Source: a virus
Lineage: Duplodnaviria; Caudoviricetes
DNA: 64,000 nt
Direction: 5' to 3' (one strand)
IMG/VR virus record: IMGVR_UViG_3300032007_001727
The notes below the pieces were generated by a model. That model was not told where the DNA came from and made no database searches. It saw only the letters and a list, made by a program, of their open reading frames with translations. The position numbers and the translations under genes are program-made. This document shows, one piece after another, positions 3,631-23,823 of this stretch (its first letter is position 1; the number at the start of each line of letters is the position of its first letter).

Positions 3631-4959
3631 TTACTCATCTTCGTTTTTTGACTTTTCTTTGTTGGCATCATCTTGTGGAAGTTCTCCACTTCTTTGTTTC
3701 AATACCTTGTCAGAATAATTGTTAAGCCTAGTTCTAGTATCCTTATTGCGCATTGTCTCAAGTTCACCTTTACTGTACCAATTGCTTTTATTTCCCAATG
3801 ACATCACTCGCTTCATTTCAGACGTTGTGAAAAGATTCTTAAGACCGTTTGCTGCGACAACACCGTGATACCTTACATATATGGTATACTGTTTCCCGGT
3901 TTTGTTTTGGTTGAAACATACACCACACCTATCACATGTGGATTCGTCACTCTTGCAAGGACACTTATAAAAGTATTCAATCCCACCGTTTTTAAGTTGC
4001 TTTTGACCCAATATGGGCTGTCCGTTTTTAACTTGGTCACCACCGGTCAAGTTATCATATGTCTCATCATCGACTGCCTTAAACTCTCTAGGCAAATCGC
4101 CTCTCTCGTTGCCGTTCCCGTGGTGTGAGTAGTTAATGGCAATATTATCTGAGGCTTTTGAGAAGTCAAGGTTCCTAGCAGTATAGGCATGTGAGTTTAT
4201 TTGATACTTCATTTTCATCTTTTTGGCGAATTTTGACCACAAGTCAACAGCCAACTGACAATGGAAATCACCACTCTCGTTGAGTCTTATTTCAGTTATC
4301 TTGTTCTCGGAACACTGTACCCTCAGCAATCTTTTCTGTTCATCCGTCATCTTACCACCCAACTTATAATTCCACTTTTCCAACTCTTGTCTATACAAGT
4401 TCTCAGAATAGGCATTTCCAAGTTGTATGTACATTTCAAGCAACCTAAAGAAGTCTTTATATGGTTTTTTGTTTCCGTGTTGATACTGCTGAAGCATTTG
4501 AGTGTGTACCAAGTCTCGTTTGAAGTTATTGTTCAATACTGAACCTTGGTCAATTCTTGAATATTGGTTTTCATCCTTCATTGCATAGCAAGCACCGTTT
4601 GTTATCTTGCATAGCCCAAGAAAATAGGATGGACACATTAAGGCCGAGGACATATTGACAATAAGAACATTTGCCGGAAGTTTCTTGTTTCCGGCAGAGA
4701 ACATGTTTTTAGGTATCTGCATAAAATCACCCTTTGGTTTTAACTTGTTCATCTGTTTTTGCTTTTCACGGGTCATATCATATATTTTTTCGGATAATTC
4801 GCCGAACACCTCTTGATATAACTCCCTCTGCTTTTTGTCAATTGCCTTCCAAATAGCCTTCATGTTCGTACCATTTGTATTTCCCCTTTTTAGGGCAACA
4901 TTTTCGGCTTCAGCCAATATTAAAGCATTATATTGTTTATTTGTGATGCTGATTCTCAT
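3631..4959 (-). CDS. GP88-like Cys-rich protein (radical-SAM-related phage family)
   Basis: GNKKL..CPS..GLC..ACYA, IRLNESGDF, YTAR and C-terminal CPC..CDRCGVC motifs. Confidence 0.6.
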   Translation of the reverse strand: MRISITNKQYNALILAEAENVALKRGNTNGTNMKAIWKAIDKKQRELYQEVFGELSEKIYDMTREKQKQMNKLKPKGDFMQIPKNMFSAGNKKLPANVLIVNMSSALMCPSYFLGLCKITNGACYAMKDENQYSRIDQGSVLNNNFKRDLVHTQMLQQYQHGNKKPYKDFFRLLEMYIQLGNAYSENLYRQELEKWNYKLGGKMTDEQKRLLRVQCSENKITEIRLNESGDFHCQLAVDLWSKFAKKMKMKYQINSHAYTARNLDFSKASDNIAINYSHHGNGNERGDLPREFKAVDDETYDNLTGGDQVKNGQPILGQKQLKNGGIEYFYKCPCKSDESTCDRCGVCFNQNKTGKQYTIYVRYHGVVAANGLKNLFTTSEMKRVMSLGNKSNWYSKGELETMRNKDTRTRLNNYSDKVLKQRSGELPQDDANKEKSKNEDE

Positions 4960-18756: not shown

Positions 18757-19089
18757 ATGAATAAGAAACTTATTAGATTAACAGAAGGAGACCTTCATAA
18801 TATAGTGAAAGAGTCTATAAAGAAAATACTAAAAGAAAGCGTTGGAGTTTTCGAGGTTTACACAAATGACTATATGCAAAATGCACCTGTTTTTGTGAGG
18901 GTTGGTGAAGAATTCTATAAAGTGCCACAAGAAATGGAGTTTATGATAGGCGAGTTAGGCACAAGACAAGGAAGAATGACTTTTATTGATGCCATTACTA
19001 ATGGCGAAATTCCTTCTTGTAATGTAGATGTATTAAAATTGAAAGGACACGGATATAAGAGTAGAGCGTTTAACGCCAATGCATTTTAA
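18757..19089 (+). CDS. small protein with IRLTEGDLH.IVKES leader
   Basis: MNKKLIRLTEGDLHNIVKESIKKILKES; the track start at 18679 lies inside the terminator. Confidence 0.75.
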   Translation: MNKKLIRLTEGDLHNIVKESIKKILKESVGVFEVYTNDYMQNAPVFVRVGEEFYKVPQEMEFMIGELGTRQGRMTFIDAITNGEIPSCNVDVLKLKGHGYKSRAFNANAF

Positions 19090-19154
19090 GCAGCCATTAG
19101 ACTGACTCTAATTTCTGACCACTTACGAACAAGTCCAATTGACTTATGAAATAT

Positions 19155-19184
19155 ATGGGCGAATCTTTCTGATTTGCCCATTTT
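19155..19184 (+). terminator. Intrinsic terminator
   Basis: ATGGGCGAATC...GATTTGCCCAT followed by a T tail. Confidence 0.55.
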
Positions 19185-19284
19185 CGTTTTTTATAACCCA
19201 ACTGCCATATTATCACCAACAATTATTGGAATTCTCAATTTTTTTATATATCTTTGCATTGATTAAAAAAAATATTATTATAAT

Positions 19285-19530
19285 ATGGAATGGCATTTGA
19301 TTTTAATGGTTGTTGGTACGATGTTATACCTCTACATGAAGGTATATTGGTATTCAACATCGATAACTATTAGTTATTATGAAGAGCCAAAAACCAAGAT
19401 ACAATCATTTAGGCGTTGGCTTAATCGCATAAAGTATTATTTGAAAGGATACTTCAAATGGTACGGATTTAAACATTTCTACCGCATAATAATCATATGG
19501 CTTATATATGGTGGATTTTTCATTTGGTAA
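19285..19530 (+). CDS. small membrane protein
   Basis: Two hydrophobic segments; TATCTTTG promoter element at 19249-19256. Confidence 0.6.
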   Translation: MEWHLILMVVGTMLYLYMKVYWYSTSITISYYEEPKTKIQSFRRWLNRIKYYLKGYFKWYGFKHFYRIIIIWLIYGGFFIW

Positions 19531-19544
19531 TTTTTAAACAACTT

Positions 19545-19739
19545 ATGACAATAATACCGAAAGATAGAATGAAGAGGTATATGGCTTGGTGCAAGGACAA
19601 GAGATATACCGTGATTTGTGATTGTGGAGAAAAGGTTGAGATAACCCTCACTCCATATTATTATGACGAAGAGGAGAATGATGTATATTTTGCAGCATTA
19701 TGCCCCAAATGCGGAGACCTAATAATCATCAAAGAGTGA
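19545..19739 (+). CDS. small Zn-ribbon protein
   Basis: CDCG ... CPKCG. Confidence 0.6.
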   Translation: MTIIPKDRMKRYMAWCKDKRYTVICDCGEKVEITLTPYYYDEEENDVYFAALCPKCGDLIIIKE

Positions 19740-19764
19740 AGGATTGTTAAATTTTGGAATAAAA

Positions 19765-19796
19765 TTTGCTGTTTTCAAAATTTTTATATACTTTTG
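19765..19796 (+). promoter_or_regulatory. Bacteroidota-type promoter for the tRNA locus
   Basis: TTTG at 19765-19768, 20-nt spacer, TACTTTTG at 19789-19796. Confidence 0.65.
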
Positions 19797-19814
19797 CACT
19801 GAAAAAATACGGAT

Positions 19815-19867
19815 GGTCGTTTAGTTCAATTGGATAGAACAATGCTCTCCTAAAGCATAGAATTGAG
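19815..19867 (+). tRNA. tRNA-Arg(CCT), 5' part (interrupted)
   Basis: GGTCGTT acceptor, GTTC/GAAC D-stem, ATGCT-CTCCTAA-AGCAT anticodon arm (CCT at 19849-19851) and T-stem 5' strand TTGAG, after which the sequence breaks off. Confidence 0.9.
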
Positions 19868-19954
19868 TATGAAATAGTTAAGTAAATATTTCAACTTTTT
19901 TATACTTTTTTTAACAAAATTTGATAACTTTTTAAAATAACGATATATTTATAT

Positions 19955-20116
19955 ATGATGAAAGTAATAAATATTGATTTTGAAAATAAGACATTTGAAA
20001 CAGATAATGGTGAAACATTCCCCTTAATGTTCGATGTTGATGAAACCATCACGCTTGAAGAATTTCAAGAGTTGGTTGACAAAAGTGAGAACGCAATAAA
20101 AGAAGTATTAAGTTAA
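19955..20116 (+). CDS. small acidic ORF inside the IS607 element (53 aa)
   Basis: MMKVINIDFENKTFETDNGETFPLMFDVDETITLEEFQELVDKSENAIKEVLS*; abuts tnpA. Confidence 0.55.
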   Translation: MMKVINIDFENKTFETDNGETFPLMFDVDETITLEEFQELVDKSENAIKEVLS

Positions 20117-20119
20117 TTG

Positions 20120-20746
20120 ATGGATAAACTATATAACATATCAAAAACCGCAGAAATATTAGATGTCACACCAAAAACATTAAGAGTATGGGATAAGGAA
20201 AATAAACTTAAACCGATTCTAACATCTGGTGGTCACAGACGTTATCGTGAGTCTGACATTAATAAGATAATCGGAGTTGAACAAAATGATGAAGTTAAGC
20301 AAGATGTTTGCGCAACATATGCAAGAGTTTCATCACAAAAACAGAAAGTAAGTGGTGAGTTGGATAGACAATCTCAGAGACTATCTGAATATTGTGCAAA
20401 ACATAATCTGTATGTTGAGCATATTATTAAAGATTGTGGAAGCGGCTTGGATGATAAAAGACAAGGCTTCGCTCAGTTGACTGACTTGGTTGTTAAGGGA
20501 AAAGTCAATAAGGTGGTGATTGAACATAAGGACATACTTACACGATTCCAATTCAACTTCATTAAGAAGTTGTATGCTGCATTTGGATGTGAGATAATAG
20601 TTTTAGATGACAAAGAAGATGTTTCTGATGCAGAGGAATTGACAAGAGACCTTATGGCATTATTAGCAAGTTTCAGTGGTAAGTATTATGGACGAAGAAG
20701 TTTAGAAAGGCATAAGCAAAATAAGAATGATAATAGAAGTAAATAA
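20120..20746 (+). CDS. tnpA: IS607-family transposase (MerR-like HTH + serine recombinase)
   Basis: N-terminal HTH (TLRVWD..TSGGHRRY) precedes the catalytic YARVSS, then DCGSGL and EELTRDL..FSGKYYG.RS. Confidence 0.92.
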   Translation: MDKLYNISKTAEILDVTPKTLRVWDKENKLKPILTSGGHRRYRESDINKIIGVEQNDEVKQDVCATYARVSSQKQKVSGELDRQSQRLSEYCAKHNLYVEHIIKDCGSGLDDKRQGFAQLTDLVVKGKVNKVVIEHKDILTRFQFNFIKKLYAAFGCEIIVLDDKEDVSDAEELTRDLMALLASFSGKYYGRRSLERHKQNKNDNRSK

Positions 20747-20879
20747 ACCAAGATGGAAGAATAAAGAATGGACATTTAACATAATTCCATACTTTTCAAT
20801 AACAAAAATATCCAATCTAGTGATTGCAATTAATGTTGGATGGTTATTTTGGGGAATAACGATTAGTAATGATTTTTAA
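20727..20879 (+). CDS. small Trp-rich/hydrophobic ORF between tnpA and tnpB (50 aa)
   Basis: MIIEVNKPRWKNKEWTFNIIPYFSITKISNLVIAINVGWLFWGITISNDF* fills the gap exactly. Confidence 0.45.
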   Translation: MIIEVNKPRWKNKEWTFNIIPYFSITKISNLVIAINVGWLFWGITISNDF

Positions 20880-20885
20880 TTTAAT

Positions 20886-22196
20886 ATGTTAAGAGCGGTT
20901 AAGATAAGGTTGTATCCAAACAAGGAACAAGCAACAATGATAAACAAGTTGCTTGGATGCTGCCGTGTTGTCTATAATCAATGCCTTAACAGAAAGATAG
21001 AATCATATAAGAACGAAGGAAAAACTGAAAACTTGACAACATTGGGGCATTTCTTTCATAATGAATTGACAAAAGACCCGTGTTTCATATGGCTTAGAGA
21101 ACAGAATACAAAGGTTCTCAAACAAGCAATAATTGATATGTTGACAGCCTATAAGAATTTTTTTGAGCGACGCAGTGGATTTCCTAAATTCAAATCAAAG
21201 CACGATAACAAACAATCTTGTAGGTTTGAACTACACGCTATATCAAAACGCAATGACTATACAACATATCATTTGTCGCTTGCAAATATAAGAAACGTCA
21301 AATTCAGATGTAATGAAAAGTGTGCCCAGTACCTACAGAAGCATCACGACAATATAAGACAAGCAACGTTAACGAAGGTGCCTTGTGGTGAATACTACTT
21401 GTCAATATTGGTTGATGGTGATTTGACGCACAAAGTAAAAGAGACCGATGCTGCTGTAGGTATAGACCTTGGAATAAAGGACTTTGTGACAACAAGTGAC
21501 GGAGAAGTGTTCAATAATCTTCATTTCAAAAAAACAGAAACAAAGAAGATTAATAGGTTACAACGTCAGTTGTCAAAGAAAGAAAAAGGAAGTAACAATA
21601 GAAACAAGGCAAGGATTAAACTTGCTAAGTTATATAAAAAGATAAATGATAGGAAACAATACTATCTTCACGCTATAAGTAATTCACTCATTGACGAAAA
21701 CCAAGTCATATGTATGGAAGACTTGAATGTGAAGGGAATGGTCAAGAATCATAACCTTGCTGAAAGCATTTGTGAAATGAACTTTGGCGAATTTCGAAAA
21801 ATGCTTGAGTACAAGGCTCAGTGGTACAACCGAAAGATAGTATTTGTTGATAGGTTTTATCCATCAAGCAAGACGTGTCATAATTGTGGCTACATCAATA
21901 AAAGCCTCACATTAAATGATAGGCAATGGGCTTGCCCTCAATGTGGCGAAGTCATTGAAAGGGACTACAATGCAGCATTGAATATACTTGATGAAGGTTT
22001 AAAGATATTGGAGACAACCATAAACGTAGGGTGCTGTGAACCCGAACTCACGCTTGTGGACTACCCAACTACCGAAAGGTGGCAACACAGAAATGTGCTT
22101 ACCGTGGATGACAGACTCAGCAATGAGGTACTAAAAAGCAGTGGTAGGTTGAAACAAGAAGTTAATAATGAACAGACAAGTTTGTTCAAGTTTTAG
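20886..22196 (+). CDS. tnpB: RNA-guided endonuclease TnpB
   Basis: KIRLYPN start; RuvC I GIDLG, RuvC II MEDL, Zn finger CHNC..CPQC and RuvC III RDYNAA. The D-E-D triad is intact. Confidence 0.93.
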   Translation: MLRAVKIRLYPNKEQATMINKLLGCCRVVYNQCLNRKIESYKNEGKTENLTTLGHFFHNELTKDPCFIWLREQNTKVLKQAIIDMLTAYKNFFERRSGFPKFKSKHDNKQSCRFELHAISKRNDYTTYHLSLANIRNVKFRCNEKCAQYLQKHHDNIRQATLTKVPCGEYYLSILVDGDLTHKVKETDAAVGIDLGIKDFVTTSDGEVFNNLHFKKTETKKINRLQRQLSKKEKGSNNRNKARIKLAKLYKKINDRKQYYLHAISNSLIDENQVICMEDLNVKGMVKNHNLAESICEMNFGEFRKMLEYKAQWYNRKIVFVDRFYPSSKTCHNCGYINKSLTLNDRQWACPQCGEVIERDYNAALNILDEGLKILETTINVGCCEPELTLVDYPTTERWQHRNVLTVDDRLSNEVLKSSGRLKQEVNNEQTSLFKF

Positions 22197-22223
22197 CACA
22201 CAGTTCGAGTCTCAAAATGACCA
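22026..22223 (+). ncRNA. Predicted TnpB omegaRNA (scaffold to 22203, guide from 22204)
   Basis: Overlaps the tnpB 3' end up to the element right end. GNRA hairpins (TACC-GAAA-GGTG, CACA-GAAA-TGTG, CTCA-GCAA-TGAG), a GAACAGAC/GTTTGTTC stem and possible GTGCT/AGCAC long-range pairing. 5' limit approximate. Confidence 0.65.
22204..22223 (+). tRNA. tRNA-Arg(CCT), 3' part (interrupted)
   Basis: TTCGAGT T-loop, CTCAA pairing with TTGAG, AATGACC pairing with GGTCGTT, discriminator A; no encoded CCA. Confidence 0.9.
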
Positions 22224-22273
22224 CAATAAAAATTTAACCTCGGCTATTTATGTGAATATAATCTAAGCCGAAA

Positions 22274-22741
22274 ATGAATAGGAGTAAAGAAGAATATATA
22301 AATGCTGCAAAAAATGCTTTCAGCATTGCACAGATGTGCAGAAATTTAGGGCTAAAATGTGCCGGTGGCAACTATAAAACCGTTAAGGAGGCAATTGATA
22401 AATATGAGATTGACACTTCGCACTTTAGAGGAAAAGGTTGGAACATAGGTTTAAAATTCAAACCGAATAAACCAATTCCGATTGAAGAGATATTGGTTGA
22501 GAATTCTAATTATCAATCGAATAAATTGCGAAAGAGGTTAATTGAAGCCAATTTAAAGGAAGCAAAATGTGACTGCTGCAATAGGTCAACGTGGAATGGA
22601 ATGCCAATTCCATTGGAACTCCATCATATTAATGGCGACAACACGGACAATAGGTTAGCGAACCTACAGATACTTTGCCCCAACTGTCACGCACAGACTG
22701 AGAACTACAGAAGAAGAAAAAATGCTGCTATGGTGAAATAG
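22274..22741 (+). CDS. HNH homing endonuclease
   Basis: CDCC..LELHHINGDNTDNRLANLQILCPNCH; free-standing between tRNA genes. Confidence 0.88.
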   Translation: MNRSKEEYINAAKNAFSIAQMCRNLGLKCAGGNYKTVKEAIDKYEIDTSHFRGKGWNIGLKFKPNKPIPIEEILVENSNYQSNKLRKRLIEANLKEAKCDCCNRSTWNGMPIPLELHHINGDNTDNRLANLQILCPNCHAQTENYRRRKNAAMVK

Positions 22742-22807
22742 GTATACACGAGGGACTTAAAATCCCTTGGTCATTGGACCGTGCGAGTTCGACTCTCGCT
22801 AGCAGCA
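22724..22807 (+). tRNA. tRNA-Leu(TAA)
   Basis: GCTGCTA/TAGCAGC acceptor, AGGGA-CTTAAAA-TCCCT anticodon arm, long variable arm (GGTC..GACC) and GCGAG-TTCGACT-CTCGC T-arm. Confidence 0.93.
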
Positions 22808-22832
22808 CAAGAGTAATGATTTTTGTATTATT

Positions 22833-23204
22833 ATGTTAAGTTTTGAATATATATTAGAGAAAAAGGTTGTTAGGTTTCCGTTTCGAATTGGTGATATTGT
22901 GAAGGTAAAGGATTGGGGTGATACTTATAGCCAATGCCCTTCATTCAATAAATTCTTTGGTGTGAAAGATAACAAGACATATTACGAAATGTCGGATGAC
23001 TCTAATAAAAAAAGAAGTAAAGCAAAAGATTTTAAGATTGTGAAACTTGGTGCACACCCAAATGGACGTGTGGTTGTTGCATACATTGTTGATAGGGCAT
23101 TCCGTGATAACATAATTGGTATTGACGGTTTGTCCTTGGTGAAACAGTTTCCGTTAAGGAATGGTGAGCAAACAACAATAACATTAGAACAAATACCAAG
23201 ATAA
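22833..23204 (+). CDS. hypothetical protein
   Basis: 123-aa ORF with an F.IGDIVKV KOW/SH3-like start. Confidence 0.65.
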   Translation: MLSFEYILEKKVVRFPFRIGDIVKVKDWGDTYSQCPSFNKFFGVKDNKTYYEMSDDSNKKRSKAKDFKIVKLGAHPNGRVVVAYIVDRAFRDNIIGIDGLSLVKQFPLRNGEQTTITLEQIPR

Positions 23205-23214
23205 TATATTTAAA

Positions 23215-23823
23215 ATGGATAGGAATAAAGCATATAAAGCCTTTGACATTAATGAAGTCGGTGACCACAACGAGGTATTTCTTGTTCCCAAGAACAAGAC
23301 AATAACCTTATACGACGGGAGATATTGTGCCGTTGCCGGATTCATTTATGCCATCGTTGACGGAAAGTATTGTGTGTTGGCGAATAAGAGGGGAATCGGG
23401 ACACCGGACTTCCAAGGATATTGGAATTGCCCTTGCGGGTATTTGGAAAGGGGTGAAAACTCAAGACAAGGTATTTCTAGGGAAACGAATGAGGAGTGTA
23501 ACATACTTGTCAGTCCGGATAAATTCACTGTCACATTTGTACAAACTGAACCGTCAGAGTCCAATAACGGAAATGTGACAATCCATCATACTGCCTTTAT
23601 CGGAAGAGGTTGTAATAACAATACAATTGAATACCCTACGGAATTTGATAACGGTGGCGAGGAGAATGAGGTCCAAGACATCAGATGGATTCCGGTAACT
23701 GAGATTAATAGATATAAATGGGCCTTCGGACACGATAGACTAATATTAAAATATGCCGCACCCATTTGGAAAAGGGTATTTCTTAAAGTTTGGTTTAAAT
23801 TTTTTGGTGGCTATGATAATTGA
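23215..23823 (+). CDS. NUDIX hydrolase
   Basis: Nudix box GYLERGENSRQGISRETNEECNI; WAFGH near the C-terminus. Confidence 0.85.
   Translation: MDRNKAYKAFDINEVGDHNEVFLVPKNKTITLYDGRYCAVAGFIYAIVDGKYCVLANKRGIGTPDFQGYWNCPCGYLERGENSRQGISRETNEECNILVSPDKFTVTFVQTEPSESNNGNVTIHHTAFIGRGCNNNTIEYPTEFDNGGEENEVQDIRWIPVTEINRYKWAFGHDRLILKYAAPIWKRVFLKVWFKFFGGYDN

Follow-up and report, generated by a model that had tools for sequence, protein, structure and literature searches.

The 64,000-nucleotide window examined here (IMG/VR virus record IMGVR_UViG_3300032007_001727; Duplodnaviria, Caudoviricetes) contains a phage tRNA-Arg(CCT) gene split in its T arm by an element of the IS607 family, which carries the genes for the serine recombinase TnpA and the RNA-guided nuclease TnpB. 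With a probability of roughly 0.7, this insertion programmes TnpB against the uninterrupted allele of the same tRNA gene. The locus lies in a 366-kb uncultured phage of gut type, and all components of the IS607/TnpB retention cycle can be read at it: the target-adjacent motif (TAM), the core dinucleotide, the guide, the scaffold, and a donor joint that corresponds to a functional tRNA gene. The core dinucleotide, AG, departs from the family consensus and offers a natural test of the stringency with which this position is read by TnpA and TnpB. If TnpB-driven homing between co-infecting phages is true, an RNA-guided class would be added to the homing elements of phages. On the present analysis the anatomy of the locus is secure and homing at this site unproven.

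The split tRNA gene and its insert

The 5' part of the tRNA gene (19815-19867, + strand) consists of nucleotides 1-53: the 5' strand of the acceptor stem, the D arm, the anticodon arm, the variable loop and the 5' strand of the T stem. The insert separates it from nucleotides 54-73 (22204-22223, + strand), comprising the T-loop, the 3' strands of the T and acceptor stems and the discriminator. This 3' part, positioned directly after the right end defined by the element family, is predicted to serve as template for the TnpB guide. When the two parts are joined, ARAGORN calls a 73-nt tRNA-Arg(CCT), both for the bare sequence and with its flanks. The stems of 7, 4, 5 and 5 bp are all paired, as an earlier note made from the DNA letters had described, with a single G-U pair. 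The conserved tertiary nucleotides U8, A14, G18G19, A21, U33, G53, T54T55C56, A58 and C61 can be read directly, giving the joined sequence both the cloverleaf and the tertiary positions of a tRNA gene. In the window as it stands, ARAGORN calls only tRNA-Leu(TAA) at 22724-22808, and the unjoined 5' part, which is without a T arm, reaches 27.2 bits against the Rfam tRNA model, whose gathering score is 29.

Removal of 19868-22203 restores the tRNA exactly; both parts are undamaged and, by the joined-sequence call, still perfectly complementary. AGT is found at 19866-19868 and again at 22202-22204, at both junctions, so that the crossover can be assigned to no single point within A52-G53-T54, where T stem and T-loop meet. 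The position of the 2336-bp insert at this border, with AGT on both sides, had been stated before and is confirmed. As a control for chance, artificial left/right joins were made around 21 right ends belonging to the family of the insert. Among 10,473 such joins, a tRNA spanning the junction appeared only at the window's true junction and its trivial shifts; the one extra ARAGORN call was a tRNA-Gly that was already intact.

The insert (19868-22203, + strand) is an autonomous IS607-family element without inverted repeats or target duplication, identified by its gene content and by ends compared with those at seven related loci (L001, L002, L004, L005, L007, L071 and L074). Its A+T-rich, non-coding left end (19868-19954, + strand) is 87-90% identical by blastn to the left ends of L002, L071, L007 and L074. 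The same alignment with these autonomous relatives gives 87-90% DNA identity across the following 53-codon open reading frame (ORF; 19955-20116, + strand), which lies between the left end and tnpA and has no Pfam or PHROG family. The tnpA gene (20120-20746, + strand) encodes a serine recombinase of 208 residues with an N-terminal MerR-type helix-turn-helix (Pfam MerR/MerR_1, E 1e-10; Resolvase, E 1e-19). It matches the catalytic domains of IS607-family TnpA structures (PDB 6dgc, 6dgb and 3lhk), with S71 in YARVSS as the catalytic serine. A 50-codon ORF overlapping the end of tnpA (20727-20879, + strand), likewise without a Pfam or PHROG family, is possibly spurious.

The tnpB gene (20886-22196, + strand) encodes 436 residues carrying the Pfam domains HTH_OrfB_IS605, OrfB_IS605 and Cas12f1-like_TNB, and its product aligns with ISDra2 TnpB (8bf8/8exa) at E 6e-63. 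The RuvC residues D194/E278/D360 fall on D191/E278/D361 of ISDra2, and the two CxxC pairs of the zinc finger are CHNC at 331 and CPQC at 350. Judged from these alignments, TnpA and TnpB have kept their domains and catalytic residues. The MerR-type TnpA and the catalytic TnpB bear out both the D-E-D triad and the IS607/TnpB assignment that the earlier note had proposed. The gene order is that of IS607, tnpB lying downstream of tnpA on the same strand. The same core dinucleotide at both junctions, combined with the lack of duplication, is what serine recombination predicts. The insert does not qualify as an IStron, since no group I intron core scored in it at E<=1 and its non-coding left end measures only 87 nt.

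Element ends, core dinucleotide and predicted guide

No close copy of the element was found in GenBank phages. The portion from tnpB to the right end is 73-77% identical to Prevotella Lak megaphages, and IMG/VR holds 78 loci with a related TnpB, often several per contig, six of them at 77-89% amino-acid identity. Twenty related right ends close with ...TTGTTCAAGTTTTA(A/G)(C/T)ATACTG and then pass into unrelated DNA, the right flank starting with T in 19 of the 20. Because they share one stop point, the right end in the window, which reads ...AGCACACAG|TTCGAG, is placed at 22203. The left ends read TA(A/C)TTAAC... in relatives and TATGAAAT in the window. Eight relatives have both ends identifiable; their left end is preceded by GGTG in four insertions, by AGTG in two, and by TGTG and AATG in one each, against TGAG in the window.

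According to the junction table of the element family, recombination in the family takes place at a TG core (NGTG on the left, ACTG at the right end) and that of the window copy at AG. The left crossover dinucleotide (19866-19867, + strand) ends the presumed TAM, TGAG (19864-19867); the right one (22202-22203, + strand) belongs to a right end that reads ACAG where relatives have ACTG. The family contrast at position -3, G in the left flank versus C in the right end, is kept in the window (TGAG vs ACAG), and position -2 of the TAM is off the family consensus. A further change is found in the right end, which reads CACAC where relatives have CATAC. A search of IMG/VR returned no other AG-core right end, all 14 pattern matches being unrelated sequence, on which an AG-core sub-lineage is rejected; AG was thus probably acquired from the tRNA target at integration and is not a lineage trait. 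A TAM of about TTGAG had been put forward: its origin in the left flank stands, its length does not, as by the logic of the family the motif has four nucleotides ending in the core, TGAG, with the off-consensus base at -2.

An omegaRNA-like scaffold is predicted at 22027-22203 (+ strand), overlapping the 3' end of tnpB and running up to the right end, as expected of TnpB/OMEGA scaffolds. In an alignment of 18 sequences (A1), a conserved block of ~170-177 nt, starting near 22027, reaches the right end and stops there in all copies. RNAalifold predicts 31 pairs on this alignment, 10 of which keep pairing through changes on both sides; GGGTG/CACCC, GGTAG/CTACC and GGTTG/CAACC are examples, and the variable hairpins differ in sequence and stay paired. 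The scaffold matches no Rfam family. A 33-nt insertion private to the window (22072-22104, + strand) lies in frame within the C-terminal tail of TnpB and forms a hairpin with a local fold of -7.4 kcal/mol; the scaffold of L074 has a different insertion of 30 nt at another position.

With the right end at 22203 and the scaffold running to it, the guide template would start at 22204, TTCGAGTCTCAAAATGACCA, within the T-loop of the tRNA. The proposal that the guide is the tRNA's own 3' part gains from both lines of evidence, the family comparison that fixes the right end and the covarying scaffold that reaches it. Without the insert, the site would be ...AATTGAG|TTCGAGTCTCAAAATGACCA; at the right junction, which is occupied, the sequence is ...CACACAG|TTCGAG.... 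With up to 3 mismatches allowed, the first 16 nt of the guide template occur nowhere else in the window, and the 20-mer occurs there once. Among 185,579 bacterial and archaeal species genomes, the 20-mer is found in no tRNA gene. Its only exact match is a chance one within a coding region of Chloroflexia, where there is neither a tRNA nor a preceding GAG. A host tRNA is rejected as target, which leaves phage alleles as the only conceivable ones.

The T arm of the neighbouring tRNA-Leu shares with the target GAG, the last three bases of the TAM, together with guide positions 1-5 and 7-10, and by sequence comparison it mismatches the guide at 6, 11-13, 15, 16 and 18. Any sparing of this gene, as expected in the earlier note, would come from the guide mismatches, those at 6 and 11-13 in particular, and not from the TAM. 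The tRNA-derived guide itself is best regarded as a by-product of the landing site, with no evidence of adaptation to tRNAs, because systematic joining of the other ~20 related copies found none that splits a tRNA. A tRNA-specialised element family is rejected on the same ground, and the insertion targets identified in relatives are protein-coding or intergenic.

Proposed retention and homing, and alternative explanations

In the proposed mechanism, an autonomous IS607 element would have entered the T arm of tRNA-Arg(CCT) by a conservative crossover of two bases, A52-G53, immediately ahead of T54. Transcription of the omegaRNA would run on into the right flank, making the last ~20 nt of the tRNA the guide. 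TnpB, provided that it tolerates this TAM, would target the uninterrupted allele, recognising TGAG followed by TTCGAGTCTC... (also read as TGAG+TTCGAGTCTCAAAATG). Such an allele would arise on precise excision by TnpA or arrive with a co-infecting relative lacking the insert. Cleavage, and recombination with a filled copy of the genome, would then restore the element or spread it, amounting to retention in the former case and homing in the latter. Homing into co-infecting relatives is plausible on this analysis.

The closest known system is CboIStron, an IS607-family element of Clostridium botulinum, in which scarless excision by TnpA regenerates a donor joint composed of TAM and target, which is then cleaved by TnpB and its omegaRNA (Zedaveinyte et al., bioRxiv 2023; PMC10690162). 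Its TAM, TGGG, includes the core dinucleotide, and the G at -3 discriminates against its own right end, TCGG (PMC10690162). The earlier note had taken as known that a left-flank TAM and a right-flank guide direct cutting of the regenerated empty site, and for the IS607 family this has been demonstrated in CboIStron (PMC10690162). The window element resembles it in the serine-recombinase TnpA, the two-base core crossover, the scaffold extending to the right end, the predicted right-flank guide, the presumed TAM ending in the core, and the contrast of G with C at -3. The core is GG in CboIStron and in IS607 itself, unlike TG in the present family and AG in the window copy. In addition, the window element is without a group I intron and hence without rescue by splicing, and it interrupts a tRNA gene in a huge phage instead of residing in a bacterial genome. 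The locus provides a clear natural instance of a mechanism that was already described, and the mechanism itself is not new.

ISDra2 TnpB of the IS200/IS605 group (PDB 8exa, 8bf8 and 8h1j) is homologous over residues 3-373, shares the D-E-D triad and the zinc finger, and likewise has a scaffold overlapping the 3' end of tnpB. Its partner differs: a Y1 HUH transposase with single-strand peel-and-paste, hairpin ends and a TTGAT TAM, whereas TnpB of the window is paired with a serine recombinase. T4 SegB-type protein homing endonucleases cut phage tRNA regions (cited in PMC13565253). SegB and other free-standing homing endonucleases in phage tRNA clusters are similar, as selfish nucleases that cut the tRNA regions of relatives at co-infection and use recombinational repair to spread. 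An HNH gene of this kind lies 50 nt downstream of the tRNA-Arg 3' part. They differ in that the target is recognised by protein, not RNA, and the tRNA gene is left uninterrupted. Phage-borne TnpB is already known (PMC12607003), and in the literature searched no TnpB element is described as inserted in a tRNA gene of a phage.

Huge phages of gut and rumen, Lak megaphages included, commonly carry this element family, which interrupts genes there and leaves putative guide-only mini-elements. An RNA ligase gene of Lak-A1 (KMDGEN ... | ... IPDGYRVCGENMQAKHSISY; MK250015, locus L001:3658-5400, and likewise at L008 and L009) is interrupted by a TnpB-only relative of 1369 bp. Its right end, scaffold and TnpB resemble those of the window (~73-77% DNA identity) and its junctions read GGTG | element | ACTG. 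Unlike the window element, it has no tnpA and keeps the consensus TG core in a protein-coding target. The first 9 nt of this element equal the first 9 nt of its right flank and with the core make up an 11-nt repeat, TGTTATTTAAT. At the position of a TGG in L008, the 5' part of the ligase gene in Lak-A1 carries TGA, a sign that the split gene may be decaying. Mini-elements or solo copies without tnpB keep the left end and/or the ~170-nt scaffold (L073:~3900-4171, L074:3686-4220, L078:~100-504, L075, L079 and L012:5414-5593) and may be guide-only elements served in trans. Several related copies (L074, L079 and L012) are situated in phage tRNA arrays; the L074 copy lies between tRNA-Ile and tRNA-Thr, and that of L012 starts right after tRNA-Leu(TAA).

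An empty allele in related phages, for which the earlier note had suggested a search, was not found in the phage, IMG/VR or JGI collections. Neither the exact joined junction nor a pattern of the 5' half matched in IMG/VR, and the 5'-half pattern was equally without a match in JGI metagenomes. A blastn comparison of the joined tRNA with 50,697 phage records brought up distant tRNA-Arg genes alone, of which that of a crAss-like phage was the best (82.5% over 61 nt); the left flank gave no megablast match in these records. The intact tRNA-Arg(CCT) genes of the distantly related phage loci L081, L082 and L071 were considered as orthologues and set aside as too diverged. Exact-protein look-ups with the flanking ORFs, HNH and TnpB located the phage only in ENA ERZ27256887 (a 366,366-bp contig) and the Logan runs SRR9008756 and SRR9008757. 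Two Logan contigs, both from one run, are 100% identical to the window and have both junctions filled.

Several observations weigh against programmed cutting of the tRNA allele. At -2, neither the presumed TAM (TGAG) nor the right end (ACAG) agrees with any relative (NGTG and ACTG), and TnpB may recognise a TGAG site poorly. In the first scaffold hairpin, one pair looks broken in the row of the window, as seen by eye, the tally of pairs not naming the sequence concerned. Neither an empty allele, nor a circle junction, nor a second copy was seen, and the readable Logan contigs, all of one run, carry filled junctions. Cutting of the tRNA allele is not assured, and the A at -2 of the presumed TAM is the main uncertainty.

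These points lend themselves to another explanation, in which the element is stranded at an off-consensus AG site whose TGAG motif is unusable by TnpB, so that neither retention nor homing takes place and what is left is a tRNA gene inactivated by a transposon destined for decay. The window is the only case of an AG core with an ACAG right end among ~20 relatives, and IMG/VR shows no lineage with it. The CACAC change, the apparently broken scaffold pair and the Lak-A1 copy, whose ligase gene has acquired a TGA and exemplifies gene inactivation followed by decay, agree with such an outcome. Against it, all ORFs and catalytic residues are intact, and the tRNA parts are still perfectly complementary. 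The G at -3, the most strictly read TAM position in the Cbo system, is kept, and the core dinucleotides match at both junctions, as excision by TnpA requires (PMC10690162). A stranded insertion is the strongest of the competing accounts, though an unlikely one. A dedicated tRNA-directed strategy is considerably less probable. Here the element, or phage TnpB elements at large, would prefer T arms for their universal G53|T54, and tRNA 3' processing would trim the guide to an exact 20 nt. The family needs G at -1 and has T at +1 in 19 of 20 right flanks, a combination that every tRNA offers as G53-T54. The orphaned 3' piece is exactly 20 nt long, and the three copies in tRNA arrays point the same way. 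However, G|T occurs everywhere, and the other ~20 right ends split no tRNA, the identified targets being coding or intergenic.

Rescue at the RNA level is the least credible account: either the insert would be spliced out, as IStrons and group I introns are, or a replacement 3' end would come from the left end, and the tRNA would still be made. IS607-family IStrons do exist (PMC10690162, PMC4227781), and the undamaged state of both tRNA parts would suit such a rescue. Nevertheless, an Rfam scan of 19000-23500 gave no intron or other RNA family at E<=1, group I and group II included, on which the intron version is rejected. The first ORF of the insert is preceded by just 87 A+T-rich bases, and the sequence after 19867 supplies no T arm, leaving the unjoined stretch below the Rfam tRNA threshold; the replacement 3' end is rejected on these grounds. 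With no intron or replacement 3' end detectable, the split copy most likely yields no tRNA, and this tRNA-Arg(CCT) copy is probably inactive. AGG makes up 36% and AGA 43% of the arginine codons in the window (frames of at least 150 codons); as tRNA-Arg(CCT) reads the heavily used AGG, its loss may cost the phage.

Beyond the programming of TnpB by the tRNA insertion, which remains the preferred account, a wider role can be sketched with considerable doubt. IS607/TnpB elements and their guide-only mini-derivatives in huge gut phages might act in RNA-guided homing or marker exclusion at co-infection, as a counterpart of T4 SegB. In the window copy the tRNA context would then shape the guide, equal to the last 20 nt of tRNA-Arg(CCT) and perhaps trimmed to exact length by tRNA 3'-end processing, and only relatives with an intact tRNA gene would be cut.

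Candidate promoter motif, neighbouring genes and genetic code

Upstream of the tRNA-Arg 5' part by 19 nt, the sequence TACTTTTG (19789-19796, + strand) reads as a Bacteroidota-type -7 promoter motif, preceded by TTTG at 19765-19768 and a spacing of 20 nt. The pattern TAnnTTTG is the -7 motif of Bacteroides promoters, and on this basis 19789-19796 is named a candidate promoter. The promoter pattern and the Lak-phage relatives of the element are consistent with a Bacteroidota (Prevotella-like) host.

A free-standing HNH endonuclease gene (22274-22741, + strand) is located between the two tRNA genes. Its ORF matches phrog_10822 (E 1.3e-46, profile positions 9-156 of 245), confirming the adjacent HNH endonuclease recognised previously; the Pfam HNH_3 match alone is below threshold. 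The last 18 nt of this ORF overlap the start of the intact tRNA-Leu(TAA) gene (22724-22808, + strand; called by ARAGORN, 60.2 bits against Rfam tRNA), and it may represent a truncated or tightly packed homing endonuclease gene.

The standard code fits the window, where frames of at least 120 codons end in TAA (32), TAG (14) or TGA (8), and TAG recoding as in Lak phages is unneeded. In Lak-type contigs, a tRNA with the anticodon TTA is found near the TnpB element (L001:7449-7521 and L008:5961-6033) and would read the stop codon TAA.

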